DNA of 57,763 nucleotides from a virus: the IMG/VR virus record IMGVR_UViG_3300045988_077974, one strand, 5' to 3'. Under the pieces are notes generated by a model. The model was not told where the DNA came from. It was given only the letters and a program-made list of their open reading frames with translations, and searched no databases. Made by a program: the position numbers and the translations under genes. Below are positions 2,790 to 57,763 of this stretch, piece by piece; the stretch's first letter is position 1; each line of letters begins with the position of its first letter.

Positions 2790-2914
2790 TTTTATGTGCT
2801 TAAAATTTCGGGACGGCAGAAACGCCAATAACTACCGCCCCTATGCCAAAACTTGAAGTCCCCCTCTTTGTAGGGGGTATATATATCATAGCACGCTTAA
2901 TAGGAGGAGAAAGT

Positions 2915-3757: not shown

Positions 3758-4552
3758 TTAAAATTTTAAATATTTTTTTGCTACATATCCTGCTTTTCCC
3801 TTGTATTTCACTTTAGACATAGTATAAAGCGTGCCGCAAATTATCATCTTTTTTGCGTTTTTATCAAGAACAGAAACGCTACATTCTTTTAAAATAGAAC
3901 CTATTTTCTTTCCTTTTGAGTTTCTAAATGCAAGGCAGGAAGCATTTACTTTTGCTATTACAGAACTTCCATTTTTTGTTTTTTCTTTTTTTACATTTTT
4001 AGAATCATACGGAGGTCTGCCAAACCCTGCAATCCTCCCGTAATTAATTGGATATGTTTTTAAAGCAACACATCCACCGTTTGCAATCACTCCGATTTTA
4101 GAGCTTGTATTCCCCTCTATTGTATCAAATTCGTTAGACCTAACTTTTACTACAAGACCTGTATGGCAAATTCTTCCTTTTGAATTTTTAAAAAATACCT
4201 GGTCTCCTGCTTTTGGGTTTTTATGCCATGCATTTTTTGATTTGTACATGTTAGAACTGCTTATTGTATAATCATCAAAATTTCCGCAAATAAGTTTTTT
4301 GGCTGTTGAAATTCCGTAAGCTTTCTGAAAACACCAATCAACAAAACAATCACACCAATATGCAGGAAAATCCATAACAGACGGGTATATTTTGTGCATA
4401 TCTCTTCCATATTTTGTATAATTGTCCGACCCCGCACCCTCTTTTTTCTTATCAAGGACGGATGGGTCCATTTTGTATGCTGATTTTGATTTTTCAATAT
4501 AACCTATCTCTTTTTTTGCGACTTTAATTACAGTTTTTGGACAAATTGACAT
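3758..4552 (-). CDS. Endolysin: CHAP/NlpC-like hydrolase domain plus SH3b-like C-terminal domain
   Basis: Motifs YWCDCFVDWCF...GDQVFF...ICHTGLVV...FDTIEGNTS are typical of CHAP lysins. The C-terminal ~65 aa (GYVAKKYLKF) is SH3b-like. Last gene of the late operon. Confidence 0.8.
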   Translation of the reverse strand: MSICPKTVIKVAKKEIGYIEKSKSAYKMDPSVLDKKKEGAGSDNYTKYGRDMHKIYPSVMDFPAYWCDCFVDWCFQKAYGISTAKKLICGNFDDYTISSSNMYKSKNAWHKNPKAGDQVFFKNSKGRICHTGLVVKVRSNEFDTIEGNTSSKIGVIANGGCVALKTYPINYGRIAGFGRPPYDSKNVKKEKTKNGSSVIAKVNASCLAFRNSKGKKIGSILKECSVSVLDKNAKKMIICGTLYTMSKVKYKGKAGYVAKKYLKF

Positions 4553-6067: not shown

Positions 6068-6078
6068 ATTCTTTCCTC

Positions 6079-12800: not shown

Positions 12801-14301
12801 CAACGACATTCTGAACCTCTGTCAAATTAGAAGAATAGTCCATTGCTGATTTTAGACCATTGAAAGCTCCCTTTGCCGCATTTACTCCGATAACAAGTTT
12901 TGTAAGCTTGGATGCAATGCCGCCGAATCCACTGCTTAATTTTCTTTGAGAAGAAAATCCGCTTTTTATTCTAGCAAAGAAAGAGCCGATAGACGCACTG
13001 GAAGCTTTTATGTTTTTCCCTATATTAGAAAAAGCCGAAATCATACTTTTTTGGAAAGAACCGGCATCTTTTCCAGTATCATTCAGCGTTTTTTTATAAG
13101 TCTTAAGCTCTGATTCCGCTTTTACAAGCTCTTGATATGATTTATCAAATCCCTCGTTTCCGAAACCGATACCGGCAGATTGCATCTTTTTAAGGTTTGC
13201 CCTTAATTTGCTTACTTTTGCATCTAAACTGTCTGTTTCTGTAATGTCGGTAGTAATTCCTTTTGCTTTCTGATTAAGCGCCGCCTTATACCTCTTTGCT
13301 TCGTCCGTAACTTTTGCCAAAGCCATATATGCAGTATCCCATTCAGAAGTACCCATTCCGAGACCGCTTTGCTCAACACTAGCCAAATACGATTTAGCAT
13401 CCTGCACCATAGCGGTATATCTCGAAATACCGTCTAAATTAGGATTAAGACCAGATTTTAACTCTTCCTTATAGTCTCTTACCTTTTTGTCAAGCTTTTC
13501 AACAGCTAAATAGGCATCATTCCACTCTTTATCTCCGACAGAATATCCTTGACTGGATAATTCCTTGAGGCGTTGCTTCGCATTATTAAGAGCGTCACCG
13601 TACTCATTTGTACTCTTTTCTGCTTTTTTAGTTTCTTTAATTGTCTGCATCAAAGAATCAGAATATCCAACCGCTGATTTCGGAATATAGGAAGTCTTTG
13701 GCTGTGCGGCTTTGGTATCTTTCAGACCGCCATTATCGCTACGGTTAATCTGAATCTGCTTTTGCGATGTTGCCATTTCTTTCATTTTCTTTGAAAGAGC
13801 ATCCATTTTGTTAATAGTTTCAGCAATATCGTACTGCATATTCACAAAAGAGCTTTTACCAGTAGATGCACTACCGGTAGCCAAAGCCTTTTTCTCTTTT
13901 TCTGCTAAATTATCCAGCTTCGCAGAAAGCTTGTCATACTCTTTCTGTAATTGTACGGTAGAACCATCAAACTTTGCATCTTTTCCGATTTCAGAAAACT
14001 TTTCCTGTAATGCTCTGATGGCTTCCATTCCAGTTTTTGTATCGACATTGACTTTTGTTTTTCTCTTTCCGAGATTTTTTACAGACTTATCAATTCCGTC
14101 AATAGCGGCTTTGGCGTCTTTCAGACCGCCATTTTTAACAATGCCATTAATATTTTTAGCAAAATTACCCAGTGCGGATGTATCAACTCCTCCAATAGCA
14201 GAAGATACCGCACCAAGCTTTTTTATAAGGCTATCAAGTGCGGCATTTGCCTTTTTCGCACTCGCTTCAATTTCTAACTCTAAGCTTTCCTCTGTAGCCA
14301 T
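9868..14301 (-). CDS. Tail tape measure protein (1477 aa)
   Basis: Size and position after the chaperones. Long coiled-coil N-terminus, TP901-type core (MSELTAKQIAGRFQAMG), Gly/Ala hydrophobic stretch and Trp-rich WW..KA repeats near the C-terminus. Confidence 0.92.
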   Translation of the reverse strand: MATEESLELEIEASAKKANAALDSLIKKLGAVSSAIGGVDTSALGNFAKNINGIVKNGGLKDAKAAIDGIDKSVKNLGKRKTKVNVDTKTGMEAIRALQEKFSEIGKDAKFDGSTVQLQKEYDKLSAKLDNLAEKEKKALATGSASTGKSSFVNMQYDIAETINKMDALSKKMKEMATSQKQIQINRSDNGGLKDTKAAQPKTSYIPKSAVGYSDSLMQTIKETKKAEKSTNEYGDALNNAKQRLKELSSQGYSVGDKEWNDAYLAVEKLDKKVRDYKEELKSGLNPNLDGISRYTAMVQDAKSYLASVEQSGLGMGTSEWDTAYMALAKVTDEAKRYKAALNQKAKGITTDITETDSLDAKVSKLRANLKKMQSAGIGFGNEGFDKSYQELVKAESELKTYKKTLNDTGKDAGSFQKSMISAFSNIGKNIKASSASIGSFFARIKSGFSSQRKLSSGFGGIASKLTKLVIGVNAAKGAFNGLKSAMDYSSNLTEVQNVVDVGFGKYKSKIEDLAKTSIQDYGMSELTAKQIAGRFQAMGTAVGFSQKKMSGMSTELTKLSADMASFYNEDQEKVAKSLQSVFTGTTMPLRKYGIDLTQATLQEWAHKQGIDANIKSMSQAEKTMLRYQYVISQTGAAQGDFSRTSNTWANQTRMLKQNFQQLGSTIGQIAINAFKPFVKAMNSTLVHLDKFAKSARDALGKIFGWEYEEGGGVTQNYKDDMEDAADGANDTADATKKATKAQKEFNKQLQGFDRLNNLTSSKGKDNDGTGNDKGTSVGNLSNIGSGSGGKWKQKDSIFKKFESDIDTLEKLGKKISTTLSKAMEDIDWKSIYQKAAGFGTGLASFLNGLFAGGEGARLFSNLGKTIANSLNTALTGLNSFATTFKWDEFGRNLGLGINGFFTSWNAGLTASTFNNVVNGILKSMISAINRTDWSLIAKRIGQLISDINASGIGENFGKLVDSIVNALYTLVSKKQTWKDLGTKISDGINGFFKGFGKSGWKKLGKSISSTFSGIATTLTTALDGVDWENVGQSIGNFLSGIDFGKVALDFGKLAIAIGKAIGKAIKGSMETAPIETAIIGIFATLKFTGLGTSVFKNLASYVMDKIGLAIINAGGTASIAKSICSAIGTAVTKIPSLIGTFISSGAAATAASILGGVVAALAAAFVGFHLGQEIGKLIMSDDQKKYAYHLNFSDVFKWDSEDWSDFWQAFADWWVDVEDWWSKKGLSIKIKFGEWKKSIGDWWTGVKEWWGEKALSVKSNFETTKSKVKNWWGNVKDWWGEKAVNVKSALATKANEIAKWWDNVKKWWGDKALKIKSIFSMETLKKGINTLIGWINGKIIDNLNKISLKIPKALGGGKLGFNISHIATFETGGTPKMGELFYARENGKPELVGRQGNRTKVINNDQIIASTSKGVADAVYNVMTPVLTSLVVAINKMNSGNGQALYVEGVSDGDIVRITTDANEKFKKTNGRPLYA

Positions 14302-18413: not shown

Positions 18414-18668
18414 CTACAAACCAAGCTTATCAACCAAAAGTTTTTTAAGGTCTGCCCCTGTATAGGTGTCAGCCTCTTCGATATCAAGTTCTTTTGCCAG
18501 TTTCTTTAAATCAGCCGTACTCATACGGGAAATTTCGGTTTTGGTATATTCCGGCGGATTCATATGATTAGAAAAAGCAGAAGTATTTTTATCCTCTGCT
18601 TTTCCCTTGATTTCCTCTCCCGGTCTATACCACACGCCGTTAATTTTTACGGAATGTGTTGCAACCAT
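18414..18668 (-). CDS. Small protein with Rho-N/SAP-like HeH motif
   Basis: The C-terminal MSTADLKKLAKELDIE...TGADLKKLLVDKL is a duplicated HeH motif, common just after capsid genes. Confidence 0.5.
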   Translation of the reverse strand: MVATHSVKINGVWYRPGEEIKGKAEDKNTSAFSNHMNPPEYTKTEISRMSTADLKKLAKELDIEEADTYTGADLKKLLVDKLGL

Positions 18669-19765
18669 TACTCACCCTCCTTGACCTTCATAACAACTAC
18701 GCTGTCCATTCCCTCGAATGTAGGAAGTCCAATCATAGAAACTACGCAGTGAGTGTTGATAGGATGATTTGTAGCATATGTGTAAACAGCGATACCGGTC
18801 TCTACGATAGAAAGATTTCCGTCTGTAAGACTTCCACTTCTCTCCTCTGGAGTTCTGCCGAATACATATTCCCCAAGGAATACTCCGCCGGACTGTGCTG
18901 ACACAATGCCGGTAGGTACAAAGCTCTTTGTCTTTCCATCTGCCGGATCAATGTACAGCTTGTCGTAAATCTCAATCTCGATACCGTACCCACGAAGATA
19001 CTCTGTTACCTGTCCCGGCTGCAATCTGATTCCACCATTGTAAGCGGTAATTCCAAGCACTTGCTTCTTTGTATCCTCTGCCTTGAGAACCATTTCCCAA
19101 GTCTCTGTATTCATCGTAAATCGTGTGAGCGAATATCCTGTTTTCTTTGCAAACTCACGTCTGGTTTGAATAAGATCATCAAGAGGAGTTGCAGTTGCCG
19201 ACTTATCCCATGCACTTGTATCCTTAAACTCAACAAAGTGGTCTGTTTTATGCTCTGCTCCGTTATCTGCCGTGTAGTCGATTGTGTATTTCTTATCGCC
19301 AAGAACAACATCAACCTTCGGAATACCATCTTTCGGTGCAAGCAACTGCCAAATCTGTCTCTCCGGAACCACTCTAGCTCCCTCGATAAGGTTCATTGGC
19401 TTTTTGCTGATCTCACGAAGCACGCTATTGGCAAGGCCTGAATTTTCAGCGTTTTGATAATTTGCGTACTCCTGCTCCTCTTTCTCTGTTACCATGTAAC
19501 TCTCACGGTAAAAAGGCATCTCACTCTGAATGTCAGAGAAACCTCCAACGTCTCTTAACTCTGCCTGTGCGTCAAAATTAGATGCTTTCAAAGAGACCGG
19601 GAGTCCGCTCTTTCCTTTGATAAACCTAAGATCGAGACTATCCTGCTTTCTTGTTCCAAACTTTAAACGTCCAAGATAAGGCTCCGTTCCTAATGTTTTC
19701 TTGTAATTATCCCACATTACACCGAGACTTCTCGCTGTAAATGCTTCTGCTAATGGTAATGCCAT
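18668..19765 (-). CDS. Major capsid protein (lambda gpE-like family)
   Basis: 365 aa, preceded by decoration and scaffold genes. The N-terminus MALPLAEAFTARSL...YLGRLKFGTRK is typical of Phage_cap_E. Confidence 0.85.
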   Translation of the reverse strand: MALPLAEAFTARSLGVMWDNYKKTLGTEPYLGRLKFGTRKQDSLDLRFIKGKSGLPVSLKASNFDAQAELRDVGGFSDIQSEMPFYRESYMVTEKEEQEYANYQNAENSGLANSVLREISKKPMNLIEGARVVPERQIWQLLAPKDGIPKVDVVLGDKKYTIDYTADNGAEHKTDHFVEFKDTSAWDKSATATPLDDLIQTRREFAKKTGYSLTRFTMNTETWEMVLKAEDTKKQVLGITAYNGGIRLQPGQVTEYLRGYGIEIEIYDKLYIDPADGKTKSFVPTGIVSAQSGGVFLGEYVFGRTPEERSGSLTDGNLSIVETGIAVYTYATNHPINTHCVVSMIGLPTFEGMDSVVVMKVKEGE

Positions 19766-23046: not shown

Positions 23047-24771
23047 TCAATACCTCCTAAATGGATTTTTTATTGCTTCTACTTTTGCAACTCTATTTCC
23101 TTGGGTTATTCTTAGAGCAAAGTTTGAAAAAACATCCGGCACATCATCTAATTGTTTTTTCCCGGATACAGAATATTGCTTTAATAACGACATCATCACG
23201 CCGTATGGATCGTTTGGTTTATAAAGAGAACTGTCTTTAAAAATTACATGCTGCAATATCCAGTTTGAACATTGAAAAATTCTTGCTTCTTTGTTCGTTT
23301 CCGTTGGAACGTCAGTTATATTGCATATCCACCCAACACTTTCCACACGTTTATTTACTTCCATGGCTACACGGTCTCCGCCGGCATTACGCTCAAATTC
23401 GCATTCTTGTACTTTATTATTTACAAGAACTCCTGCGGCGTTTCTATATTGTTCTTCATAATCTGCCGTGTTATCGCACACGCAATCCACGCAATAATAA
23501 TCTTCTCCGTATTTTTGTAGAACAGGCAACACAAAATAGTCAGTTCCTTTTCCTTTTGTATCACACTGACCCGTAACAATTTCCGGTTCTCCGTGCGGCA
23601 AATTAAGATACCGTCGAATTTTATCTTCCGGAAACAATAGCCCTTCTCTTTCAATCGGATCCTGTTTGTATAGGCAGCGATAAGAAATTTCATCCATAAG
23701 CAACTGTATGTCTTCAAAATCCTTTACCGTATATCCACCGAATTCAAAGTTGAAATTACTTTCTCCAGTTTTCGGGTCAATGTCCGGAACCGATATCACC
23801 TTTACCCTTTTATTTCCCTCATATGCCTGTATAATACGACCTATAACATCCCGAACGCTCCATCTCGTAGCAATGTGTATTTCCTTGCACGGATTTCCGT
23901 CTTCGTCCGGAATTTTTCTCTGTCTAGCATCTACAGCATACTTTCCCCATAATTTATCAAGATAAGTAGGGTTTAGTGCTTCTTCAATTCCCCCAATCAT
24001 ATCATCAACAAGCAAAAATTTATTTGCACGGACTTTACCAGCATTTTTACTTCCGACTGACGTACATTGTACAGACTGAAACGGCTTATACTTTCCGACA
24101 TTAAATTGTTCAAGTTTTGCGTTTGTACTTGTTACTTTAAGGTCTGGGAATATTTCATTCCAGGTATATTCATCTTCGTTCGTTACAATATCGTACATAC
24201 CGTCATAATACATTCTGGTAATATCTCCGCTATGGGAATAAAAAAGATTATATCCACTCGTATACCATCCTATAACCGCAGAATGGAAAAATTTTTCAAT
24301 CGTTGTCTTTCCTGTTCCTGGGGGTAATGAGATACACAATATGTCGTACTTATCATCAATCATCCCCTGCAACGCATCCACAAGACCAATTTTTAAAAAT
24401 TGTTTTCTTCTTGGCATATAAAAACGCTCTTTAGGCTCTCTTTTTTTCTCAATGTACCTAAAAAAACTGTCAACAATTTTATTTTGAGCTTCGATCAACA
24501 AAATCTCATAATATTTATCCAGCAATTCAAAAGAGCTTTTATTTTTGAAAACAAACTTTTCTATGCCCCACATATCAAGTCCTGTGTCACGAATGCATAC
24601 GGTTTCTATCAGCTCTTTTGCTCTAGCCGTACATTTCAGCATTAAGTCAGTTTTTTTTTCTTCCTTAGCAAGCTGGCACACATCACAGTATGTATTTATT
24701 ATGTTTTCATCAATTCCATTTCGGGTAATATACTTTTCGCAATCAGAAATCAGATTTTCTAATTCAGACAT
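23047..24771 (-). CDS. terL: Terminase large subunit
   Basis: Walker A ISLPPGTGKTT and LLVDDMIGG, plus the C-terminal nuclease half. Preferred start is the ATG at 24771 (MSELENL...) behind GAGGTG. Confidence 0.9.
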   Translation of the reverse strand: MSELENLISDCEKYITRNGIDENIINTYCDVCQLAKEEKKTDLMLKCTARAKELIETVCIRDTGLDMWGIEKFVFKNKSSFELLDKYYEILLIEAQNKIVDSFFRYIEKKREPKERFYMPRRKQFLKIGLVDALQGMIDDKYDILCISLPPGTGKTTIEKFFHSAVIGWYTSGYNLFYSHSGDITRMYYDGMYDIVTNEDEYTWNEIFPDLKVTSTNAKLEQFNVGKYKPFQSVQCTSVGSKNAGKVRANKFLLVDDMIGGIEEALNPTYLDKLWGKYAVDARQRKIPDEDGNPCKEIHIATRWSVRDVIGRIIQAYEGNKRVKVISVPDIDPKTGESNFNFEFGGYTVKDFEDIQLLMDEISYRCLYKQDPIEREGLLFPEDKIRRYLNLPHGEPEIVTGQCDTKGKGTDYFVLPVLQKYGEDYYCVDCVCDNTADYEEQYRNAAGVLVNNKVQECEFERNAGGDRVAMEVNKRVESVGWICNITDVPTETNKEARIFQCSNWILQHVIFKDSSLYKPNDPYGVMMSLLKQYSVSGKKQLDDVPDVFSNFALRITQGNRVAKVEAIKNPFRRY

Positions 24772-24777
24772 AAAGAA

Positions 24778-24807
24778 AAGCACCTCGCTTTCACAGCAAA
24801 GGTGCTT
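24778..24807 (-). promoter_or_regulatory. Hairpin sequestering the terL RBS (terminator/attenuator-like)
   Basis: AAGCACCT (24800-24807) pairs with AGGTGCTT (24778-24785) on the minus-strand RNA, followed by UUCUUU and the AUG. The GAGGUG RBS is inside the 3' arm. Confidence 0.5.
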
Positions 24808-38583: not shown

Positions 38584-39708
38584 TCAAACAATGTTAATTG
38601 CATCCCCTACCTTGAAAAGTTCCTCTATACCATAATCATCTCCCGGTGTGACATACAGATCAAGTGTTGTTGATATTTTTTGATGCCCCATAATTCTTTG
38701 CAGTGCTTTCGGGTTCATCCCAGCTTGTATGCACCGTGTGGCGAAAGTGTGTCTTAATAGATGCATTGATATGTTTCGTAGTCCGTTTGTCTTACAAACA
38801 TAAGCTATTCTTGTCGATAAACAAAATCTAGGTATACAGCTTCCGTCTGAATTTTTAAAAACCAAATCACCATATACTATGTTTGTAGCATATCCTTTTT
38901 GAGATTTTTTTACAATCCGTAGTATCCTTAACGCTTCCGTTGTCAATGGTATATTTCTTTTTCCGGCTTTCGTTTTTGTTTCGCCTAAAAACCAGCTATT
39001 ATCATTTTTATCTTGAATCAAGCTTCTATTTACCGACAAAGTATTATTTTCATAGTCTATATCGGACCACTTCATGCCAAGAACCTCTCCAACTCTCAAT
39101 CCTGTTTGCAGTACGAATCTGAATATATATTCGTATTTTCCTCCGGTTATTGCTTCTACAAATATTTTTTGCTCATTTTTGCTCATGGCAATCCGTTCAC
39201 GTTCTTCTTTTCCTGTTAATTTAACAGTTTTTCCGCACGGATTTTCTTTTAAAACCTTATTTTGCACTGCATAATCAAACATATTTCCCATTATAGCCTT
39301 TACGATATCTTCTGTTTTATTGCTCATTCCTGCATCTGACATATCATTAAGAACTCTTTGGCACGTTAATGGTATTATTTTTTTAATTTCAACATCTCCT
39401 ATTTTTGGCTTTATATGTTTTTCGTAATTAAAAGAATAAATATATAATGTCCCCTGCTTAACAGTCCTTCTTTTCATATCAATCCATATTTCATACCATG
39501 AATTAACCGTCATATTGTCTGGTTGCTCAATATCGCTATGTTCATTATGGTATTTACTATCAGCAACCCATTTCTGGCATTCTCGAACATTACGAAACAA
39601 TTTCTGCCTACGTTTACCAAATCTATCGGTATATCTGCCAACATAGTAACCGTCCTTTCTTTGAGATATACCCTCTCCAAGCTCCTTGCCTTTCAGACTT
39701 TTTCCCAT
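38584..39708 (-). CDS. int: Tyrosine integrase
   Basis: C-terminal catalytic region ...GLRVGEVLGMKW...HLLRHTFATRCIQAGMNPKALQRIMGHQKISTTLDLYV (R..HxxR..Y). Confidence 0.92.
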   Translation of the reverse strand: MGKSLKGKELGEGISQRKDGYYVGRYTDRFGKRRQKLFRNVRECQKWVADSKYHNEHSDIEQPDNMTVNSWYEIWIDMKRRTVKQGTLYIYSFNYEKHIKPKIGDVEIKKIIPLTCQRVLNDMSDAGMSNKTEDIVKAIMGNMFDYAVQNKVLKENPCGKTVKLTGKEERERIAMSKNEQKIFVEAITGGKYEYIFRFVLQTGLRVGEVLGMKWSDIDYENNTLSVNRSLIQDKNDNSWFLGETKTKAGKRNIPLTTEALRILRIVKKSQKGYATNIVYGDLVFKNSDGSCIPRFCLSTRIAYVCKTNGLRNISMHLLRHTFATRCIQAGMNPKALQRIMGHQKISTTLDLYVTPGDDYGIEELFKVGDAINIV

Positions 39709-48992: not shown

Positions 48993-49730
48993 CTAAAACG
49001 GACACTCATTAGGATTTTTCGAATCCCAACTTTTCCCTGCTACTGCGACATCTACATTCGCCACAGGAGCGACTTTTTTCATCTTCTTGATAAAACTATC
49101 ACTATCGGAATTTTCACTCGATAAATGGCACATTATGACGTTCTGCAGGCGGTCTGAATAATTCTCCTTGACAAAATCACAAGCCGTGTCGATGGATAAA
49201 TGACCTCTGAAAACGTGATTGTTTTTAGCCGGATTGCTCCAGTCAACCATATCTTTGTCGTAATTGACACCAAGAAGAATATGGTCAATATCCTTAAATC
49301 TCCATTTGATAACTTCGCAATCGGTTATGTAAAGCATTCTCCCCATTTCCTTGTGAGTAATCAGAAAGCCGAATATCGGGCAAGGCTCGCCGTTTGCGTT
49401 TGTATGTGTCCAGTTTCCATCCATTGTTGTTAAATCAAATATTCTTACAGTAAAATAAGAATTTGCTAGAAACTGGTTCATAAGCAAGGTTTCATATGGC
49501 TTACATATTGGAATACCCATAGCTTCAAAATCTTTTACCGACTTGCTATGGTCAAGGTGCCGATGGGTGCATAACACACCCACAACATCTTTAATGTTCC
49601 AGTCTAATCCTTTTTTAATCTCCTTAATCGGTATTCCACAATCAAGGATAAGTGTTTCTCCGCTGTCGGAAGTTAGCGTATAGCAATTTCCGGCTGACGA
49701 TGAACCTAAGCATTTTAATCTCATACTCAC
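48993..49730 (-). CDS. Metallo-beta-lactamase-fold hydrolase (probable nuclease of the recombination module)
   Basis: LCTHRHLDHSKS (HxHxDH) motif, and the C-terminal MCHLS motif. Confidence 0.8.
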   Translation of the reverse strand: MSMRLKCLGSSSAGNCYTLTSDSGETLILDCGIPIKEIKKGLDWNIKDVVGVLCTHRHLDHSKSVKDFEAMGIPICKPYETLLMNQFLANSYFTVRIFDLTTMDGNWTHTNANGEPCPIFGFLITHKEMGRMLYITDCEVIKWRFKDIDHILLGVNYDKDMVDWSNPAKNNHVFRGHLSIDTACDFVKENYSDRLQNVIMCHLSSENSDSDSFIKKMKKVAPVANVDVAVAGKSWDSKNPNECPF

Positions 49731-50066: not shown

Positions 50067-50957
50067 CTACGCCTCCTCCGCTTTCATAAATTCCGGCAAA
50101 TCATCGTTTTCCTCCGCTGTCGCATCGTCAACATCGGTCGCAACGCTGTCGATAACGTCTGATTCGTCAAAATCAACGCTGTTTGCGTTCTGCTCAATAT
50201 CGTACTCGACATCTTTCTCGATCATTTCCTGCTCACTGACAACATTCAAATCGTCAATGTCGATCTCTGTGCCGGTATGCGAATTGTTGATATATTTCAG
50301 AAGCCGGTTTTTCACCGTTTTCATTGCCATCTGATCCGGAAACTTCTGGTGAGTTCCATTTCCATTCTCTTTGTATCCGTACCCCTGCTGCCAAGACTGC
50401 TTAATCTGATCCATCGTCATTACTTCCGAAATAATTTCCCCGTCATCCATAACAGCCACGGCATAAGCACCAATAATGTTATCATTGCTCATATTTTCAA
50501 AGGACTGCTCGTGAGAATCAATCACCGTCTTTGCGTTTTCCTTATGAAATTTGAAGATATCGCCTTTATAAATCACAGAAGCATTGATATCTTTCAGCCC
50601 AAAACGTCTCGCAATGCAGGTGTTTCCGTAAACGGAACGCTGACATTGTAATTTACCGCCATATGCGACTGGATAGCACTGCTTCTTTCTCATAGAAAGA
50701 CCGTCAGTGACCATTTCAATAAGGGCGTTTTCAATACTTGCTCTGCTGCAACTTTGCAAAACAGGCTTTTTATTTCTGTCAGTAGTCTCCTGTAAAATAA
50801 GCATTGCCGACATAAACTCATTGGTATAGTTGTAATCTTTCGGAAACGTCAAACCGAATTGCTCTTTCTGCTTGATCTTTACGACCATTCCCTCTGTGAA
50901 ATCTTTTGCAACCAGTTCTTTGCTTTCTGCTTCTTTAATTTCATTCTCCATAGTCAT
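50067..50957 (-). CDS. recT: RecT-family single-strand annealing protein
   Basis: MRKKQCYPVAYGGKLQCQRSVYG...IIGAYAVAVMDDGE...MTMDQIKQSW is a typical RecT core, with an acidic tail. Confidence 0.85.
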   Translation of the reverse strand: MTMENEIKEAESKELVAKDFTEGMVVKIKQKEQFGLTFPKDYNYTNEFMSAMLILQETTDRNKKPVLQSCSRASIENALIEMVTDGLSMRKKQCYPVAYGGKLQCQRSVYGNTCIARRFGLKDINASVIYKGDIFKFHKENAKTVIDSHEQSFENMSNDNIIGAYAVAVMDDGEIISEVMTMDQIKQSWQQGYGYKENGNGTHQKFPDQMAMKTVKNRLLKYINNSHTGTEIDIDDLNVVSEQEMIEKDVEYDIEQNANSVDFDESDVIDSVATDVDDATAEENDDLPEFMKAEEA

Positions 50958-51982
50958 TCCTCACTTTCAAATAATTCTTTTACATATAAATCCATTGAAT
51001 AACAAAGTTTTACGCAATTTCCGTGTAATGCATGATTTTTCCAGGAATTGTACTTCTCATAAAACTTCTTTTCTATCATTCTTCCAGATTTCACAAGCTT
51101 TACCCATGTTCTAATCTTCTTGCGGATTTTACGTTTATTCGATCCTGTAAGTTTTCTTATGTATTTTCCGTCTTTCGTAATGTAATGATGAAAACCGGTA
51201 AACAGTATCCCGTTTTTAAACGGCAATATTTGCGTTTTCCCATTCAGCGACAATCTGAGACTGGCAACAAATTCCCTTATGCAGTCAAGGCACCACATCA
51301 AATAACCTTTATCTTGGTGGATTAAGTAGAAATCGTCCATATATCGTCCGTATAGTTTTATACCTAATTCTCCGGTAATAAAACGATCTAACCCGTTAAG
51401 CGTCAACAAAGCATAAACCTGTGCAACTTGGTTTCCAAGCGGAAGCCCCAAACCATCTGTGCTGTCTATAAACAAATGATTTAACCACTTCACATATTCG
51501 TCTGTAAAATGATAGTCTACAATGTCTTTCAAAACCTCATGATCTATCTGGTAGAAAAACTTCGTAATATCACATTTAAGAATCCAACCATTAAGACCAT
51601 GCTCTCTGTAAAACTCAAGCATTTGATCTCTTAGACAATCCATTCCGAAATGAGTTCCTTTTCCTTTCTGCCCTGCATAATTGGTTTTGATAAACTCGCT
51701 TTCCAATCTCGGATGCAATATGTTGTCGCACAGACAATGTTGAACAACTTTATCCTTAAAAGAACACGATTTAATCACTCTCTCCTTAGGTTCATAGACC
51801 TTAAATTCATTGTACGGATTCATCCGGTATGTCTGATTTTCAAGCTGTTCTTTTAAAAGATGCAATCCCTCAAGGCTCATTGTCTGAAATTTTGCACTGC
51901 TGCCATTGAATTTTTTACCATATTTAGCTTTCTTATAAGCCTTATACAGATTTTCATAATCACAAATAATATCTTTATCCAT
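50954..51982 (-). CDS. DGR-type reverse transcriptase
   Basis: 342 aa. RT motifs ...ILKCDITKFFYQIDH..., GLPLGNQVAQVYA (resembles the DGR [IL]GxxxSQ motif) and GRYMDDFYLI. Sits directly 3' of a TR whose copies differ at adenines. Confidence 0.9.
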   Translation of the reverse strand: MDKDIICDYENLYKAYKKAKYGKKFNGSSAKFQTMSLEGLHLLKEQLENQTYRMNPYNEFKVYEPKERVIKSCSFKDKVVQHCLCDNILHPRLESEFIKTNYAGQKGKGTHFGMDCLRDQMLEFYREHGLNGWILKCDITKFFYQIDHEVLKDIVDYHFTDEYVKWLNHLFIDSTDGLGLPLGNQVAQVYALLTLNGLDRFITGELGIKLYGRYMDDFYLIHQDKGYLMWCLDCIREFVASLRLSLNGKTQILPFKNGILFTGFHHYITKDGKYIRKLTGSNKRKIRKKIRTWVKLVKSGRMIEKKFYEKYNSWKNHALHGNCVKLCYSMDLYVKELFESEE

Positions 51983-52021: not shown

Positions 52022-52081
52022 GCGCACTTTTTTGTATCTTTTTCCGATTTCGGCTTACTGCCTACTCTAACTGTCTGTGTA

Positions 52082-52157
52082 ATACAGAATGGGCGAACAC
52101 CGTTGTTGTTATTGTAGTTCCTGTTGTTGATATTGCCGGACGAAGCAACAACGGTTT
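52082..52157 (-). repeat. DGR template repeat (TR)
   Basis: About 76 nt. The sense strand is AAC/AAT-rich (AAT ATC AAC AAC AGG AAC TAC AAT AAC AAC AAC) and non-coding, between avd and the RT. It aligns to VR1 and VR2 with mismatches almost only at TR adenines. Confidence 0.9.
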
Positions 52158-52180: not shown

Positions 52181-52552
52181 TTATCTTTCTTTATCCTTAG
52201 TTCTCCAAGCAATCGCCATATGCTTAATGTCAGAAACCATCTTCGACCAATATTCCATGCTTTTTGCATTTATGATGTTTAGTTTCATTGATAATTCAAT
52301 GTAAAACAAAAGTTCGTCACAATGCGTTATTGCTTTGGTTTGAAGCTCCGACCGCTCCCTGCGATACAACTTCAAATCCGTTCGATTCGCTTCATACAGA
52401 TATTCATAGATTTCAAGTGCTTTATTTTGCATTTTATCCACAAGAGAAAATCTGTATTTCTTCGGATATCTATTGCAGTTTGAAGTTATCCGCAGCGTAT
52501 GTTCGGCAAGGTCTTTTGCTTTCAAGATTACCTTTAATTCCGTTCCAGCCAT
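52181..52552 (-). CDS. avd: Avd-like accessory variability determinant (four-helix-bundle, 23S rRNA IVS protein family)
   Basis: 123 aa, basic and helical. KAKDLAEHTLRITSN...YPKKYRFSLVDKMQNKALEIYEYLYEAN fits the Avd/IVS-protein pattern. Canonical position between target and TR. Confidence 0.8.
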   Translation of the reverse strand: MAGTELKVILKAKDLAEHTLRITSNCNRYPKKYRFSLVDKMQNKALEIYEYLYEANRTDLKLYRRERSELQTKAITHCDELLFYIELSMKLNIINAKSMEYWSKMVSDIKHMAIAWRTKDKER

Positions 52553-52556
52553 TTAA

Positions 52557-53165
52557 TTACTCCTCTGATTCAAAGATTGAAGAAGAAAAGATACAAAACG
52601 GGCGAACACCGTAGTCGCAATTGTAGTTCCTGATGATGAAATCGCCGGACGAAGAAACAACGGTAACCGAATATTCATAATCGTTGCAAGGTGTACTCCA
52701 AGGAGTAATAAGCCACCACCATTTTTTCTCGTTCGGAATAAGACTTCGATATTTCCTGTATTCATCTACAGTAAGAAGAGAAACGGAATCTTCGCACTTT
52801 TCATATTCCGTCTGACCGTCCAGAGATAACAGATCTCTTTCAAACTTAACGATATTTTCTTCTCCAACTTCATCGGATATCTTTTTGAGAAAATCTCCAT
52901 TCAAATATTCTCTTAAACCGCTCGATTTCCAGTCGTTAGAAGAATCGTCAAACTTCATATCTTCTTCCAAAATTTCACAAAGGCAAGAATAACCATTGTC
53001 TGTAATGTCAATAATCTTCCAGTCAAGACCTGCGATTTTAAAAGTGTCTCCAATTTTAAGGCTGGAAGGGATTTTAGAAACACTTTTCTCCGCTTTCAAA
53101 ATAGCAACATCATTCCTAAGTTCGTTGATCTGATCCTGCAAAATTTTCATTGTTAAATTAGCCAT
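52557..53165 (-). CDS. DGR target protein 1 (VR1 at the C-terminus)
   Basis: C-terminus WWWLITPWSTPCNDYEYSVTVVSSSGDFIIRNYNCDYGVRPFCIF. The overall layout (GD.F..G...W.V......LREYLN..F....vsLLTVDEY...WWW...) resembles DUF6273/CLec-like DGR targets. Alternative start at 53171. Confidence 0.85.
   Translation of the reverse strand: MANLTMKILQDQINELRNDVAILKAEKSVSKIPSSLKIGDTFKIAGLDWKIIDITDNGYSCLCEILEEDMKFDDSSNDWKSSGLREYLNGDFLKKISDEVGEENIVKFERDLLSLDGQTEYEKCEDSVSLLTVDEYRKYRSLIPNEKKWWWLITPWSTPCNDYEYSVTVVSSSGDFIIRNYNCDYGVRPFCIFSSSIFESEE
52591..52666 (-). repeat. DGR variable repeat VR1
   Basis: Aligned by hand to the TR. 9 in-frame substitutions at TR adenines and 2 at non-adenines. Confidence 0.9.
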
Positions 53166-53167
53166 AA

Positions 53168-53776
53168 TCATTCTCCTTTCGATACAAAGATATTAGATTT
53201 CAAGATACAAAATGGGCGAACACCGTTGCAGTTACCGTAGCCCCCGCAGCTGAAATTGCCGGACGAAGCAACAACGGCGATTGAATACTCCCATCCTCTT
53301 TCAGCTGTAGACCACGATGTGCAAGTCCACCACCAATCATTTAACTCGTTATTCACAAGAAGATCATTGTACTTTCTTGCTTCATCAAATGTAATAGGTC
53401 TGACCTTGCATTTAAAACGAGAAAATTCTTCCTGCATATCAACCGATGTCAAGTCGACAGAACATTCAACGATGTTTTCTTCACCAACCTCCGATTCAAT
53501 AATTGGCTGAATATCTTCCTCGATAACCTTTCTAAGATTAGATTTTCTGTAGTCTCTCGTATCATCATCAAATACGATATTTTTTGCCATAAATCCTTTT
53601 GAAATTACTGCCGTTGTTTCTGCATATTCATTCTGATCAAGCACAATAAAATCATGATCTCCAATTTTGAATGTATTGCCCGGATGCAATTCGCAAAGTT
53701 TGACTTTGCTTTTTTTCTCCTCTTCTTCAAGCCTTTTTACCAGTTCCCTTGCCATTTCCAATGTTTTACTATTCAT
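53168..53776 (-). CDS. DGR target protein 2 (VR2 at the C-terminus), paralog of target 1
   Basis: C-terminus WWWTCTSWSTAERGWEYSIAVVASSGNFSCGGYGNCNGVRPFCIL. Same architecture as target 1. RBS GGAGGG. Confidence 0.85.
   Translation of the reverse strand: MNSKTLEMARELVKRLEEEEKKSKVKLCELHPGNTFKIGDHDFIVLDQNEYAETTAVISKGFMAKNIVFDDDTRDYRKSNLRKVIEEDIQPIIESEVGEENIVECSVDLTSVDMQEEFSRFKCKVRPITFDEARKYNDLLVNNELNDWWWTCTSWSTAERGWEYSIAVVASSGNFSCGGYGNCNGVRPFCILKSNIFVSKGE
53205..53280 (-). repeat. DGR variable repeat VR2
   Basis: Aligned by hand to the TR. 12 substitutions at TR adenines and 1 at a non-adenine. Confidence 0.9.
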
Positions 53777-53779
53777 TTT

Positions 53780-55696
53780 TTATCCCTCCATAATTTCCAT
53801 ATCTTTGTTATCAACAATCAGAAGAATCTTCTGACTTTCGATCATATCAATTACTTTCGCCCGGTTCGCTTCATCCAAGCTCTCAACATCATCAATCCAA
53901 ATAGGGCAACGGATTCCGCTCATTTTCTGAATCGAATTACAAATGTCAATCCTGCCAATGATGCGGTTCCCCTTATTGCTCATAGTGGTTAGAATTGACT
54001 TTCCATCCACCATAGGGATGCAATCTGATTTGTAGCCGCCGGATTTTCCGATCTCAAACAATTTCCATTTGACAATTCCGAAATTAGCATTTACGGCATC
54101 AGCTAATTTTGAGTTTTTCACTTTCTCCAAATCCTCAATCAAATGAAGAACCCTCTCCGCATCTGCCTGCTTCTGTGATTTTTCACGCTGCTCTTTTCGC
54201 AGATGCTCTAATCTATCCTCGCAGTCGGAAGTATCTGACTGCGTCAGAAGCTTTTCCCATTCTGCCAATTCTGACCGTATTTCCGTCTCTTCTCCGGCTA
54301 GCATAGTTTTCAAAGCCGAAATGTCATTGTATTTCTCAAGGAATTTCTCCTTTTCGGAAATCTCACTTTCCAACTTCTTGTAATCATCGGTGCTGGTAAC
54401 GTCTCTTCTTTCTTCGGACAGATTGTTTTCAAGCTGCTTAATCTCTTCTGCCAAAATTTTCTTATCAGCTTCGTTATTTTTGTTTAGTTCCTCTAATTTA
54501 GATATTTCTTTGTTGTTTTCCTTGATTTCTTTCTTAATTTTCAAACCGTCACTCTCGATTTTTTTGATCCGATCATTCTTTGACTTCTCAAAATCAGATT
54601 TCAGAGTTTCAATTTCTTCATCCGGAAACTCCCGGTGACACGTCGGACATACAGTCGATTTCTCGTCGAATTGCTCTGATTTCACAGACTGCCAAACATT
54701 AGAAAGCCTTTCTCTCTCCTCGTTCAGCTTAATGTTTTCTTTTTTGTAACCAGAAAGCTCAAAAGTATTTTTCTGTATTTTTACATTAAGCTTTGTAAAA
54801 AGCTCTTCTTTTCTTCCAATCTGTTTTTTAATGTCACTCAATTCTTTTTCCGTTTTCTCATTCGCCTCACGAACCATATCATTAAGCCGAAATTTCATAT
54901 CAAGGATATCGTTCGTCTCCTTATCGTAAGAATCCATAAGATTCTTGTTAGAAGCCTGCTTGTCTTTGTTTTCTTTCAGACGTTCCAGTAAAAAGTTTCT
55001 TTGCAACTCTAACGCCGATACGTCCGTTTCCTGCTTCTGCTTGATCTCAAGCTCTTTCTCTGCGATGCGACCGGAATATGTTGATAATTCCTTTTTCATA
55101 TCGCTGACAATAGATTTGTTCATTGCCGTTATCTCTTCTACCGTATAATCAGCCAACAGCGGCAAAAGGTCTTTCAAATCTTCGTTTCCTGCGGCGATAT
55201 CATAATCGCTAATACTATCCGTATGAGCGAAAAGGTATTTCCTCATTTCGGTTGGCTTCTGTGCGGTAAAAGCGTTGATGTTGCAACACATCTTGACAAT
55301 GTCCATATCAATGCAGAGGTAACCCTTAAAGTCCTTGGCAGTTTTTAGAACGTCGTTAATAAAATACCTGTTATCGTCCTTGTAACTGCTGCCGTCTTTA
55401 CTATATGTCCGCTTCTGAACCTTTTTCATTGTGACTATTTTGCCATCAACACAAAACCTGGCAGTAACGCTAACATCGTCATCAACAGGCACCCCGTTTT
55501 CTTCCCGTCTTACAACCGGCTTCGGTGTCAAATCGTAGTCACAATCAAACAAAAGCCACATATAAGCATTCGCAATAGTGCTTTTTCCAACTCCGTTGCG
55601 ACCGATGATTCTGGTCAAATCGTTGAAACCGACCTTTTCGTAGCCATAAGCCATGAAGTTTGTCATTTCAATGTCAATGATTTTGATTTCTTTCAT
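53780..55696 (-). CDS. SMC/Rad50/SbcC-like AAA ATPase with a long coiled-coil and a CxxC hook
   Basis: Walker A IGRNGVGKSTI, about 350 aa of coiled coil containing CPTC, and a C-terminal ...IWIDDVESLD (Walker B/D-loop-like) motif. Confidence 0.8.
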   Translation of the reverse strand: MKEIKIIDIEMTNFMAYGYEKVGFNDLTRIIGRNGVGKSTIANAYMWLLFDCDYDLTPKPVVRREENGVPVDDDVSVTARFCVDGKIVTMKKVQKRTYSKDGSSYKDDNRYFINDVLKTAKDFKGYLCIDMDIVKMCCNINAFTAQKPTEMRKYLFAHTDSISDYDIAAGNEDLKDLLPLLADYTVEEITAMNKSIVSDMKKELSTYSGRIAEKELEIKQKQETDVSALELQRNFLLERLKENKDKQASNKNLMDSYDKETNDILDMKFRLNDMVREANEKTEKELSDIKKQIGRKEELFTKLNVKIQKNTFELSGYKKENIKLNEERERLSNVWQSVKSEQFDEKSTVCPTCHREFPDEEIETLKSDFEKSKNDRIKKIESDGLKIKKEIKENNKEISKLEELNKNNEADKKILAEEIKQLENNLSEERRDVTSTDDYKKLESEISEKEKFLEKYNDISALKTMLAGEETEIRSELAEWEKLLTQSDTSDCEDRLEHLRKEQREKSQKQADAERVLHLIEDLEKVKNSKLADAVNANFGIVKWKLFEIGKSGGYKSDCIPMVDGKSILTTMSNKGNRIIGRIDICNSIQKMSGIRCPIWIDDVESLDEANRAKVIDMIESQKILLIVDNKDMEIMEG

Positions 55697-56395: not shown

Positions 56396-56836
56396 CTATT
56401 CTCCTTTCTTTAAAATCCTAACTTTGACCGTCTGAACGCCAAACTCTTCTGCATCCTTATGACTTTCAAAGTAAATGTCCAACTTGTTCCCTTTGATTTT
56501 CGCCCCGCAATCCTCGGCGGTAAATTTTCCGATTCCCTTTAGGTGTAACTTCGTCCCATACGAAATCACTTTTGGATCAACTGCAATGGTACGTCCCTGC
56601 TTTGCTTTCGATCCTGTCGCAGTTAATCTTCCCCATCTACCGGAGCATTTCCGACAAGGGCAATATGCTGTAACTTTATACTTCTTCCAAACGATAGAAG
56701 CTTTCTTTTTCGGTTTTGCCTGCACGATTACTTCCTTATTATTAAGAAGCCCGTCAAACTGACATCCAATATCAGCTACCATCAACAGCGGTACGGCTAC
56801 CGCCAATACAAACAGTGCTATTTTCTTTCTTTTCAT
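56396..56836 (-). CDS. Secreted/anchored 3D-domain (RlpA/MltA-like double-psi barrel) cell-wall protein
   Basis: N-terminal hydrophobic signal. VTAYCPCRKCSG...TATGSKAKQGRTIAVDPKVISYGTKLHL.G.G.FTAEDCGAKIKGNKLDIYF matches the 3D-domain signature. Confidence 0.75.
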   Translation of the reverse strand: MKRKKIALFVLAVAVPLLMVADIGCQFDGLLNNKEVIVQAKPKKKASIVWKKYKVTAYCPCRKCSGRWGRLTATGSKAKQGRTIAVDPKVISYGTKLHLKGIGKFTAEDCGAKIKGNKLDIYFESHKDAEEFGVQTVKVRILKKGE

Positions 56837-57148: not shown

Positions 57149-57763
57149 CTATTCAAGCTCCACAAATTCTCCGTTTTTTAATCGGTAAAACGTATCTTCT
57201 TTAATTTTTTCTCCGTCAACACATTCTGTTTTGACGCATACCGGAATCAAATAAGAATTATCGTTTTCATTTTTTCTTTCCCATTCAGCCAATGTAATCC
57301 AACTGCCAATTTTTGCTTTTGCAACAGAGTCCATTCCAGCTGCCATTATTACGGAGTGTTTGCCTTCCGATTCAATCTGTGCGTAATCTCCAGAGCTACC
57401 AATCTGCGCGTAATCTCCAGAGCTACCAATCTGTGCGTAATCTCCAGAGCTACCAATCTGTGCGGAATCTCCAGAGCTACCAATCTTTGCGGAATATCCA
57501 GAGCTACCAATCTGTGCGTAATCTCCAGAGCTACCAATCTGTGCGGAATCTCCAGAGCTACCAATCTGCGCGGAATATCCAGAGCTACCAATCTGTGCGT
57601 AATATCCAGAGCTACCAATCTTTGCGGAATCTCCAGAGCTACCAATCTGCGCGGAATATCCAGAGCTACCAATCTGTGCGGAATATCCAGAGCTACCAAT
57701 CTGTGCGTAATCTCCAGAGCTACCAATCTGTGCGTAATCTCCAGAGCTACCAATCTGTGCGGA
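57149..57763 (-). CDS. Repeat protein, C-terminal part (nonapeptide repeats plus 65-aa tail); 5' end leaves the window
   Basis: The frame of track ORF 57149..57346 stays open upstream through every repeat. Hand check gives ...SAQIGSSGDYAQIGSSGDYAQIESEGKHSVIMAAGMDSV... The track ORF 57349..57753 (HRLVALEIT) is a different, probably non-coding frame. Confidence 0.7.
   Translation of the reverse strand, partial: SAQIGSSGDYAQIGSSGDYAQIGSSGYSAQIGSSGYSAQIGSSGDSAKIGSSGYYAQIGSSGYSAQIGSSGDSAQIGSSGDYAQIGSSGYSAKIGSSGDSAQIGSSGDYAQIGSSGDYAQIGSSGDYAQIESEGKHSVIMAAGMDSVAKAKIGSWITLAEWERKNENDNSYLIPVCVKTECVDGEKIKEDTFYRLKNGEFVELE
57373..57763. repeat. 27-bp tandem repeat, about 14 units
   Basis: Units start at 57383. 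Variants are gta/gga, atc/ata and ctgtgc/ctgcgc/ctttgc. Continues at 1..108. Confidence 0.95.

Follow-up and report, generated by a model that had tools for sequence, protein, structure and literature searches.

A predicted DGR with a tandem pair of small DUF6273 targets in the early operon of gut-Clostridia prophages

The window analysed here, the whole stretch of 57,763 nucleotides from IMG/VR record IMGVR_UViG_3300045988_077974, is circular and represents a circularly permuted temperate siphophage, the host of which is probably a Lachnospiraceae. Every gene from Ant through RecT and beyond lies on the minus strand. A DGR cassette is located within this early operon, just downstream of the immunity module, between an SbcC-like ATPase and RecT. 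The SbcC/Rad50-like ATPase (53780..55696, minus strand) displays AAA_15, AAA_23 and Rad50 zinc hook matches and resembles the SbcC-like phrog_77 (E 1.2e-50). It is followed on the same strand by the upstream DGR target TgtA (53168..53776, an ORF of 202 aa), the downstream target TgtB (52557..53171, an ORF of 204 aa that would encode 202 aa if the second ATG, at 53165, were the start), the Avd accessory protein (52181..52552, 123 aa), the template repeat (TR, 52082..52155), the DGR reverse transcriptase (RT, 50954..51982, 342 aa) and, directly downstream of RT, the RecT single-strand annealing protein (50067..50957; Pfam RecT E 8.3e-37). A gap of 3 nt separates the ATPase from TgtA, an ATGA overlap joins TgtA to TgtB, 4 nt lie between TgtB and Avd, and the RT stop shares a further ATGA overlap with RecT. 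The first-pass annotation had placed the target pair in the early arm, and its location within the early recombination operon, with overlapping or abutting neighbours, confirms this. Promoter-like and terminator-like sites displayed no excess over shuffled sequence (30 sites observed and 23.9 expected for the former, 6 and 5.5 for the latter). On the circular map, the targets are separated from the distal tail genes by approximately 9 kb through the lysis and immunity genes, and by approximately 43 kb in the other direction; the genes at 4961-8901 are distal-tail genes by position, immediately following the tape measure gene. We also considered whether the DGR has a special functional connection to single-strand annealing proteins, represented by RecT in the window and by a Rad52-type protein in the related locus L047, and dropped the idea: genes of this kind are ordinary components of early operons, and the flank counts were modest.

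TgtA and TgtB are 41% identical over 174 aa (BLASTP, E 6e-38). TgtB matches Pfam DUF6273 (PF19789) with 41.9 bits against a cutoff of 23.5, TgtA matches it with 18.2 bits, under that cutoff, and both match phrog_9958 (E 1.1e-47 for TgtB and 5e-31 for TgtA). Judged by these matches, the two are paralogs, both small phage proteins of the DUF6273/phrog_9958 type, TgtA being composed of a charged N-terminal helix and a DUF6273 domain. The motifs KKWWWLITPWST and NDWWWTCTSWST were read from the target translations, and GVRPFCI lies close to the C-terminus of both. The earlier description of two adjacent paralogs of about 200 aa, each with a WWW...SW motif, a GVRPFCI end and a C-terminal VR, therefore holds: the ORFs abut, both motifs are read in the two translations, and VR_A in TgtA and VR_B in TgtB both match TR. 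A signal peptide or TM segment was found in neither protein, the maximum 19-residue Kyte-Doolittle means being 0.53 and 0.61, and both N-termini are strongly charged, in agreement with the claimed absence of a signal peptide. The size of approximately 200 aa likewise agrees with the claimed lack of fibre-like length. No Ig or Fn3 domain was identified by Pfam, and neither Pfam nor AF2 gave evidence of the beta-prism and beta-sandwich attachment domains of the Mtd type, each target comprising one helix and one globular domain. Weak matches to phrog_10993, “Hoc-like head decoration”, are local and confined to the lectin part of phrog_10993.

The AF2 model of TgtB has a mean pLDDT of 71.7 and that of TgtA a pLDDT of 38, too poor for use. 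In TgtB, residues 2-28 form a helix at pLDDT 80-89, so that the N-terminal coiled segment proposed for both proteins stands for TgtB, the TgtA model being too poor to bear on it. The VR region of TgtB falls below pLDDT 50 and most of the VR is unreliable in the model. Foldseek searches of PDB and BFVD with this model, its VR at pLDDT below 50, returned DUF6273 relatives only and no match to Mtd, TvpA or FGE, and no DUF1566 or FGE-sulfatase link was detected by Pfam at E<=10. DUF6273 has been reported to be C-type-lectin-like, with the VR forming a surface beta-hairpin (PMC10743442; bioRxiv 10.1101/2024.10.15.618418). Among solved structures, the only match is the DUF6273 domain at the N-terminus of an IgA protease from Thomasclavelia ramosa (PDB 9qa6; Foldseek E 1.3e-4, sequence-profile E 1.8e-4), which has the W.WL.TP...S.G...GVRP motif in common with the targets. 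This protease is a 137-kDa secreted, sortase-anchored peptidase, and the function of its DUF6273 domain is not described (PMC12402451). Unlike TgtA and TgtB, the domain is not a DGR target.

The repeat search detected a single family of direct repeats in the window, 74 nt in length and present in three copies. TR, located between Avd and RT and ending 99 nt upstream of the RT start codon, contains 22 adenines; in the reading frame of the targets it reads TVVASSGNINNRNYNNNNGVRPFC. VR_A (53205..53278, minus strand) covers about residues 167-191 at the C-terminus of TgtA and is 82% identical to TR; VR_B (52591..52664, minus strand) covers about residues 170-194 at the C-terminus of TgtB and is 85% identical. 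Each of the two conserved TR anchors occurs exactly 3 times in the window, with 0 occurrences expected by chance; the window therefore contains no VR besides VR_A and VR_B, in the tail genes or elsewhere, and a search with both anchors, permitting up to 3 mismatches, revealed none. Within the window, the TR/VR differences fall nearly all on TR adenines. When the window and 11 related loci were combined (12 genomes, both VRs), TR adenines carried 299 of the 329 TR/VR mismatches, and 24 of the remainder represent a single fixed C->T position at the 3' end. The adenine share is thus approximately 91%, rising to 98% without the fixed position. TR is nearly invariant in the 12 genomes, and both VRs vary between otherwise similar genomes; the two VRs diversify independently across the population. 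Among 120 homologs of TgtB, entropy reaches approximately 1.5-3.3 bits at residues 177-187, compared with a mean of 0.21 before residue 160.

The fixed position distinguishes an IMH*-like 3' end of TR (52082..52103, minus strand, ending ...CCCATTCTGTAT) from IMH-like 3' ends of the VRs (52591-52612 and 53205-53226, minus strand, ending ...TTTTGTAT). In the 12 genomes, the element GGTGTTCGCCCATT(T/C)TGTAT carries T in 24/24 VRs and C in 12/12 TRs. By analogy with BPP-1, we infer that the VR element may act as an IMH. No hairpin or cruciform of the BPP-1 type was found after the VRs, where the 61 nt of DNA at each 3' end gave folds that did not surpass those of shuffled sequence (z +0.52 and +1.32); not all DGRs have a hairpin downstream of the VR. 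Ordinary paralog similarity or chance, with no DGR origin, is practically untenable as the source of the repeats: shared 3' sequence is partly expected since TgtA and TgtB are paralogous, but the third copy is non-coding, the sequence flanking the 74-nt block does not align between copies, and this origin is refuted by that failure together with the adenine bias and the confinement of population hypervariation to the VR.

Avd occupies the canonical position between target and TR. It matches phrog_3206, “Avd protein of DGR” (E 5.8e-23), and its Pfam matches to bAvd (23.3 bits, under the 40-bit cutoff) and 23S_rRNA_IVP are both below the curated cutoffs. RT matches Pfam RVT_1 (E 2e-14) and is 50% identical to the nd12 DGR RT and 37-41% identical to the RTs of FP_Brigit, FP_Toutatis and Lelie. 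The cassette TgtA-TgtB-Avd-TR-RT is very probably a complete and active DGR, an assignment made because of the three-copy repeat, the adenine bias, the VR hypervariation and the RT, Avd and DUF6273 matches. Following established DGR biology, a complex of RT and Avd would copy TR RNA with adenine-specific errors, and the IMH-like sequence common to both target genes would then direct the cDNA there, to replace their 3' ends.

The same Tgt-Tgt-Avd-RT arrangement was found in 43 of the 80 Clostridia loci scanned in addition to the window; a scan of IMG/VR with a single protein as query yielded only 6 loci. In the tree, 45/48 upstream Tgt copies form a pure clade that includes TgtA, and the best match of an upstream copy was another upstream copy in 47/47 cases. 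To judge from these relationships, the Tgt duplication is old and the gene order fixed. Fused two-domain proteins are present in at least five clusters, P0121 for example joining a TgtA-like and a TgtB-like part through a helical linker. The surroundings were surveyed through the Pfam matches of 249 flanking ORFs, the survey covering the 25 commonest families on each side and many ORFs having no match. HTH/Cro/CI, S24, ParB, DnaB, SSB, Sak, Rad52, RecT, ERCC4, methylases and Rep were observed, and no tail, capsid or portal family was among the 25 commonest per side. In an Agathobacter locus (L025) the cassette follows ATPase-RecT-MBL, and in L047, examined in detail, it lies beside a Rad52-type gene. 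The targets are kept and RT and TR lost in L022, L024 and L026, and a cultured strain of Lachnospira intestinalis carries a version of the cassette without RT. Homologs are not always encoded inside tail modules; the opposite is seen, with regulatory, replication and recombination surroundings in five or more further phage lineages and approximately 48 prophage cassettes. In all likelihood, the cassette in the window belongs to a conserved early-operon class that is widespread in gut-Clostridia prophages. Early position in dozens of related prophages questions the assumption that these small DUF6273 targets are tail receptor binders.

Small DUF6273 targets are also known from phages in which RT is located elsewhere. 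Published single-domain examples are nd4_tgt2 and nd12_tgt2 (Baykov et al. 2023, PMC10743442), the targets of Lelie/CP11 (PMC11792537), and Toutatis VR2, FP_Toutatis gp24 (bioRxiv 10.1101/2024.10.15.618418); Faecalibacterium phages that carry the family have been isolated or induced (PMC11792537). In FP_Brigit, the small target gp06 lies between a regulator gene and exonuclease/RecT genes, and 7/7 mismatches of its VR are at A, with TR/RT 41 kb away; RT and the other target directly follow the tail-fibre gene. In FP_Brigit, a single TR is the template for the small target as well as for a Hoc-like/tentaclin protein whose gene adjoins the tail genes, and this two-target arrangement has also been reported for Toutatis, nd4 and nd12 (PMC10743442; bioRxiv 10.1101/2024.10.15.618418). 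The same early-target pattern can be observed for FP_Toutatis gp24, Lelie orf58, nd4 tgt2 and nd12-like loci. FP_Toutatis gp23 and Lelie orf57 were considered as tandem paralogs and rejected, identity being 16-17% with no common motifs. In FP_Brigit, FP_Toutatis, Lelie and nd4 the target thus remains among early genes even where RT is elsewhere, and therefore position follows the target family rather than RT. These phages bear directly on the suggestion that the early position is functionally meaningless, the cassette being a mobile module in a permissive early spot and the targets riding with RT. A shifting place relative to the recombination genes (window, L025 and L047) and the loss of RT and TR from loci where targets remain would suit that suggestion, but the early location of targets far from RT speaks against it, as does the status of the small Toutatis target as core, in 98.8% of genomes (bioRxiv 10.1101/2024.10.15.618418), and we consider it quite improbable.

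We read TgtA and TgtB as probably soluble proteins that bind in a lectin-like manner, each carrying a short helix as a handle. The existence of fused proteins with TgtA-like and TgtB-like domains makes it probable that the two work as a pair. Production of the targets would coincide with that of the early recombination and replication proteins rather than the tail proteins, and therefore they are most likely not Mtd-type tail-module receptor-binding proteins. On balance we lean slightly towards hypervariable binders that act off the tail, diversified by an active DGR of the conserved early-operon class, rather than Mtd-type receptor-binding proteins. For the narrower statement that TgtA and TgtB are not virion tail proteins, the chances appear even.

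To our knowledge, every C-type-lectin DGR target of known function is extracellular (Mtd, TvpA, LdtA and the Bacteroides pilins), an observation that runs against action off the tail. Three others run in the same direction: the lectin fold was not reproduced in the AF2 and Foldseek results, a few cassettes adjoin packaging genes (GP3_package twice, Terminase_6N once), and the only solved DUF6273 domain comes from a secreted, wall-anchored IgA protease (PMC12402451). The literature favours Mtd-like receptor binders, presuming this role for the small DUF6273 targets (PMC10743442; bioRxiv 10.1101/2024.10.15.618418); no virion proteomics for any small DUF6273 target was found in the literature on these DGR targets, and no comment on their early position in the literature search. 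TgtA and TgtB may instead be virion-associated accessory receptor-binding or adhesin proteins, Mtd-like and merely encoded outside the structural module, whose terminal helices dock on tail or capsid, possibly as oligomers, the DGR altering binding to host or mucus. The reported lectin likeness, the extracellular nature of the sole solved relative, the weak Hoc-like matches, the reported two-target phages and the TR common to the small target and the Hoc-like/tentaclin protein of FP_Brigit all favour such a role, and the confident amphipathic N-terminal helix of the TgtB model could serve docking onto the virion or oligomerisation. Against it stand an early-operon position kept across many lineages with unrelated structural modules, the tight coupling of the target genes to recombination genes, the lack of both an Mtd-type attachment domain and fibre-like length, and the absence from the window of a tail-gene VR and of a tentaclin. 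A virion role is possible on this evidence, though we would not put it at even chances.

As regards what off-tail binders would bind, the first-pass annotation spoke of cytoplasmic proteins and of binding to host or defence factors. Its interpretation is partly supported: small, early-encoded targets with no signal peptide stand and extend to other lineages; a cytoplasmic location and an interaction with host or defence factors are speculation. In its fullest form, the proposal would make TgtA/TgtB a hetero-oligomeric hypervariable early binder inside the infected cell, a phage-encoded “antibody” tracking variable host proteins (defence, recombination or replication factors) rather than cell-surface receptors, which at present seems unlikely.

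Phage DGRs are usually explained as tropism switching via diversification of the tail fibre. In the gut-Clostridia prophages, an entire class of DGRs appears to direct hypervariation exclusively to one conserved protein pair, small, lectin-like and encoded early, and the DUF6273 family keeps its early position even where RT adjoins tail genes. If the proteins are not virion parts, DGR diversity in the human gut virome serves something besides adsorption, and the published label of Mtd-like receptor-binding protein for tgt2-type proteins needs revision. If they are virion parts, early operons would, unusually, retain genes for structural proteins or adhesins. Should the intracellular reading be true, this class of DGRs would be the first to be dedicated to conflict between phage and host inside the cell.

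The DGR system and the DUF6273 family are already known. In BPP-1 (mtd-avd-TR-brt), as in the window, the cassette is ordered target, Avd, TR and RT, TR-to-VR differences are adenine-specific, the VR lies at the target C-terminus, and a conserved IMH-like 3' element differs between TR and VR. Mtd is a protein of 381 aa, with beta-prism and beta-sandwich domains for attachment to the tail fibre, and its gene closes the tail module (PMC10743442), whereas the window has two targets of approximately 200 aa each in an early operon and no significant hairpin after the VRs. The small target2 proteins of nd4, nd12, Lelie/CP11, Toutatis and Brigit are closer, with 28-36% identity to Tgt, DUF6273 and the WWW...GVRP motif aligned, a single globular domain with a short helix, a C-terminal VR and an early-gene location. 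However, those phages have a single small target that lies far from TR/RT (by 17-41 kb in Toutatis and Brigit) and shares TR with a large Ig-domain tentaclin, beside the tail genes in Brigit; in the window there is no tentaclin, and the sole targets are two tandem paralogs in cis, upstream of Avd-TR-RT. The helix is N-terminal in the window targets and C-terminal in Toutatis, Brigit and nd4. Tentaclins themselves, of about 570 aa, join DUF6273 to Ig-like or Fn3 domains, which TgtA and TgtB lack. An earlier case of a phage DGR target that is not structural is the second target of Quimbyvirus, which, like those of the window, is distal to the structural module; the authors read it as non-structural and involved in phage-host conflict (Benler et al. 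2021, PMC8008677). Quimbyvirus is a Bacteroidetes phage with a frameshifted RT and also a structural target, and its second target lies on the opposite strand, inside a defence/counter-defence island; in the window, by comparison, both targets would be non-tail, are co-oriented with recombination genes, and belong to Clostridia prophages.

Gene order, read along the - strand from PHROG and Pfam annotation, demonstrates that both targets of the diversity-generating retroelement (DGR) are located in the early arm of the genome, apart from the tail genes, as the first-pass annotation had mapped them. Nearly all genes of the window are carried by the - strand. At 57373-57763 lies a 27-nt tandem array (14.5 copies, 93% matches) that reaches past the end of the window and resumes at 1 to about 110. 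This makes the window a circularly permuted genome, cut within a - strand gene (start codon ATG near 480, stop codon at 57349) that encodes 9-aa repeats (VALEIxHRL) and whose orthologs in relatives have Pfam DUF7666. Beside the CI-like repressor (2843-3709, +), the - strand order runs from Ant (495-1232) through this repeat gene, a 3D-domain protein (56396-56836) and an SbcC/Rad50-like ATPase (53780-55696) to the upstream target TgtA (53168-53776), the downstream target TgtB (52557-53171), the accessory gene Avd (52181-52552; phrog_3206, 6e-23), the template repeat TR (a non-coding direct repeat of 74 nt, 52082-52155), the reverse transcriptase RT (50954-51982; RVT_1) and RecT (50067-50957). 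An MBL hydrolase (48993-49730) follows, then a methylase, DnaC-like loader, integrase and replication initiator. Also on the - strand are TerL (23047-24783), followed by the portal, major capsid (18668-19765), tape measure (9868-14301), two distal tail proteins of 940 and 368 aa (4961-8901) and endolysin (3758-4552). Genes around the cassette meet, in order, with a gap of 3 nt, an overlap (ATGA), a gap of 4 nt and, between RT and RecT, another ATGA overlap; promoter- or terminator-like sites showed no enrichment. The order from HTH repressor/Cro to RecT is preserved in close relatives. The tyrosine integrase (38584-39708, -; phrog_1, E 1e-73) is situated mid replication region, with the repressor/Cro/Ant immunity module ~35 kb away, an unusual arrangement for a temperate phage. 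Orthologs of the MBL-fold hydrolase (in loci L012-L018) give weak or faint Pfam Anti-Pycsar_Apyc1 matches, and the enzyme could be either the nuclease partner of RecT or a cyclic-nucleotide-degrading anti-defence enzyme.

The two tandem ORFs, of 202 aa (TgtA) and 204 aa (TgtB), are paralogs, identical at 41% of 174 aligned residues (E 6e-38). Their C-terminal variable regions match the TR with 82% (VR_A, 53205-53278, -) and 85% identity (VR_B, 52591-52664, -), and they share a WWW..T.WST motif and a GVRPFCI end, so that the initial description of the pair stands. Both match the small-protein family phrog_9958 (TgtA 5e-31, TgtB 1e-47); for Pfam DUF6273, TgtB scores 41.9 bits, over the cutoff of 23.5, and TgtA 18.2 bits, under it. 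Each of the two conserved anchors of the repeat has exactly three matches in the window, with 0 expected; therefore only TgtA and TgtB are targeted, and no tail gene is diversified. Base-by-base comparison demonstrates that TR/VR similarity ends abruptly outside the 74-nt block, within which the differences in the window fall on TR adenines. Across the window and 11 related genomes the TR is near-invariant, and its adenines carry 299 of 329 mismatches (143 in VR_A, 156 in VR_B). A further 24 represent one fixed C(TR)->T(VR) site in the 3' GGTGTTCGCCCATT(C/T)TGTAT element, which is the expected distinction between IMH* and IMH, the 3' elements of TR and VR. Among 120 TgtB homologs (86-94% identity), entropy reaches about 3.3 bits at residues 177-187 and averages 0.21 bits before residue 160, while the variable sites display N, D, Y, G, S, C, F and I, the typical AAY-codon set. 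With mismatches concentrated at adenines, a near-constant TR and entropy confined to the VR, diversification is thus ongoing, and independent, in both VRs. No significant DNA hairpin was found 3' of VR_A or VR_B (z +0.5 and +1.3), in contrast to BPP-1, where such a hairpin follows the VR. The segment at 52031-52091 (-), comprising the last 10 nt of TR and 51 nt toward RT, folds as single-stranded DNA better than shuffles (z -2.8), which would fit a structured spacer within the DGR RNA.

A survey of one genome per GTDB species provided 80 loci, of which 43, in addition to the window, have the Tgt-Tgt-Avd-RT layout; five hold a single target with Avd and RT, and several hold target pairs without RT. 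The closest loci, at 52-70% identity, are from Lachnospiraceae (Lachnospira intestinalis, Roseburia, Agathobacter), which suggests a host in that family; remoter ones are from Oscillospiraceae, Acutalibacteraceae, Christensenellales and others. Flanks of about 48 cassettes were scanned against Pfam (129 downstream and 120 upstream ORFs, many with no match). The 25 commonest families on each side include HTH_3/Cro-CI, Peptidase_S24, ParB, DnaB, replisome organiser, SSB, Sak, Rad52, RecT, ERCC4, PDDEXK, HNH, DNA methylases and Rep proteins. Among these listed matches, packaging is represented only by GP3_package (twice) and Terminase_6N (once), and tail, capsid and portal families are absent. 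Locus L047, for example, reads integrase (-), lysogeny genes, Tgt, Tgt, Avd, RT, Rad52-type annealing protein and methylase. The target pair in an early operon is thus the rule, not an oddity. The closest prophage relative (L022, 9398-11930), in cultured Lachnospira intestinalis CLA-AA-H89B, carries the SbcC-like ATPase, TgtA, TgtB and Avd (91% identical); its RecT begins about 70 nt past Avd, and TR and RT have therefore been deleted, leaving a "frozen" DGR. L024 and L026 likewise carry orphan pairs without an RT.

The tandem duplication is old, with both copies retained in a fixed order, as judged by sequence comparison. When the 96 pair members are placed in a neighbour-joining tree, 45 of the 48 upstream copies fall in a pure clade, the best match of an upstream copy is another upstream copy in 47 of 47 testable cases, and mean identity is 45% between upstream copies, 43% between downstream copies and 35% between the two types across loci. 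The three exceptions (L047, L053 and L063, from Candidatus Fimenecus and a Clostridia MAG) cluster with their own downstream copies, which points to gene conversion or to another round of duplication; identity within a locus is at most 61% over all loci. Single ORFs of 355-411 aa with two DUF6273 domains form at least five clusters (P0121, P0122, P0194, P0212, P0218). Some could be frameshift artefacts, but that five clusters differ in sequence argues that the fusions are real. P0121 joins a TgtA-like (67% identity) and a TgtB-like part (65%) through a helical linker, and such fusions suggest that TgtA and TgtB act together. A giant multi-DUF6273 repeat protein, P0197 (6979 aa), matches the 204-aa TgtB in 18 separate stretches.

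Comparison phages demonstrate that early position tracks the family of small DUF6273 proteins rather than the RT. In Faecalibacterium phage FP_Brigit, tail fibre gp57 is followed consecutively by Avd, RT and Hoc-like gp60; the small DUF6273 protein of this phage, gp06, is encoded 41 kb away, between a transcriptional regulator gene and exonuclease/RecT genes. The FP_Brigit TR, which overlaps the end of the annotated Avd gene, matches VRs in both gp60 and gp06 (TR/VR sites by TR matching: L002 4373-4445; L102 7412-7489/9477-9554). The gp06 VR is 90% identical to the TR, with 7/7 mismatches at adenines, and is a true remote VR of it; the searched literature contained no mention of gp06 as a second target. 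FP_Toutatis gp24 and Lelie orf58 are among early genes with the RT about 17 kb off (bioRxiv 10.1101/2024.10.15.618418), and nd4 tgt2, located in the replication region, directly precedes an exonuclease-like gene. Because the RT of Brigit, Toutatis, Lelie and nd4 is elsewhere yet the small target is early, position follows family. Metagenomic loci resembling nd12 and Brigit have the early position too; homologs, checked for confinement to tail modules, sit early instead.

The AF2 model of TgtB (mean pLDDT 71.7, pTM 0.67) has one globular domain and a confident N-terminal helix at residues 2-28 with heptad-like L11/I15/L18/V22/L25, and pLDDT falls below 50 at residues 159-186, most of the VR. 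For TgtB this helix agrees with the coiled segment proposed for both targets; the TgtA model (pLDDT 38) is too poor to use. Foldseek against the PDB and a profile search gave a sole match, the DUF6273 N-terminal domain of 9qa6, a secreted T. ramosa IgA protease (PMC12402451), and BFVD matches were uncharacterised or DUF6273 proteins from gut phages. This large family comprises 1764 clusters (50% identity, E<=1e-3), the best 150 of which are mostly 170-240 aa long. In agreement with the initial claim of no signal peptide, neither target has a signal-peptide-like N-terminus; nor has either a hydrophobic segment. The description of small targets in an early operon, far from the tail and lacking a signal peptide, is solid and general; the other part of that interpretation, a cytoplasmic pair binding host or defence factors, is hypothetical. 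We marginally favour a pair that does not serve as a receptor-binding protein of the tail or virion. Less probably, the pair is an adhesin associated with the virion but encoded at an unexpected site. Published small single-domain DUF6273 targets of nd4 and nd12 (PMC10743442), Lelie and CP11 (PMC11792537) and Toutatisvirus (bioRxiv 10.1101/2024.10.15.618418) were assumed to be Mtd-like receptor binders, and the searched literature contained no remark on their early-gene position. An intracellular binder, as the specific form of the non-virion reading, is rather unlikely.

Within the searches made, four findings seem new: a class of cassettes with an ancient tandem pair as sole targets, the fixed gene order and fused versions of that pair, the systematic occurrence of the small-target family in early operons, and Brigit gp06 as a proven remote early-region target. 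The targets of viral DGRs are reported to be annotated for the most part as tail proteins (Roux et al., PMC8144416), and a Quimbyvirus target, located outside the structural module, was interpreted as non-structural (Benler et al., PMC8008677).
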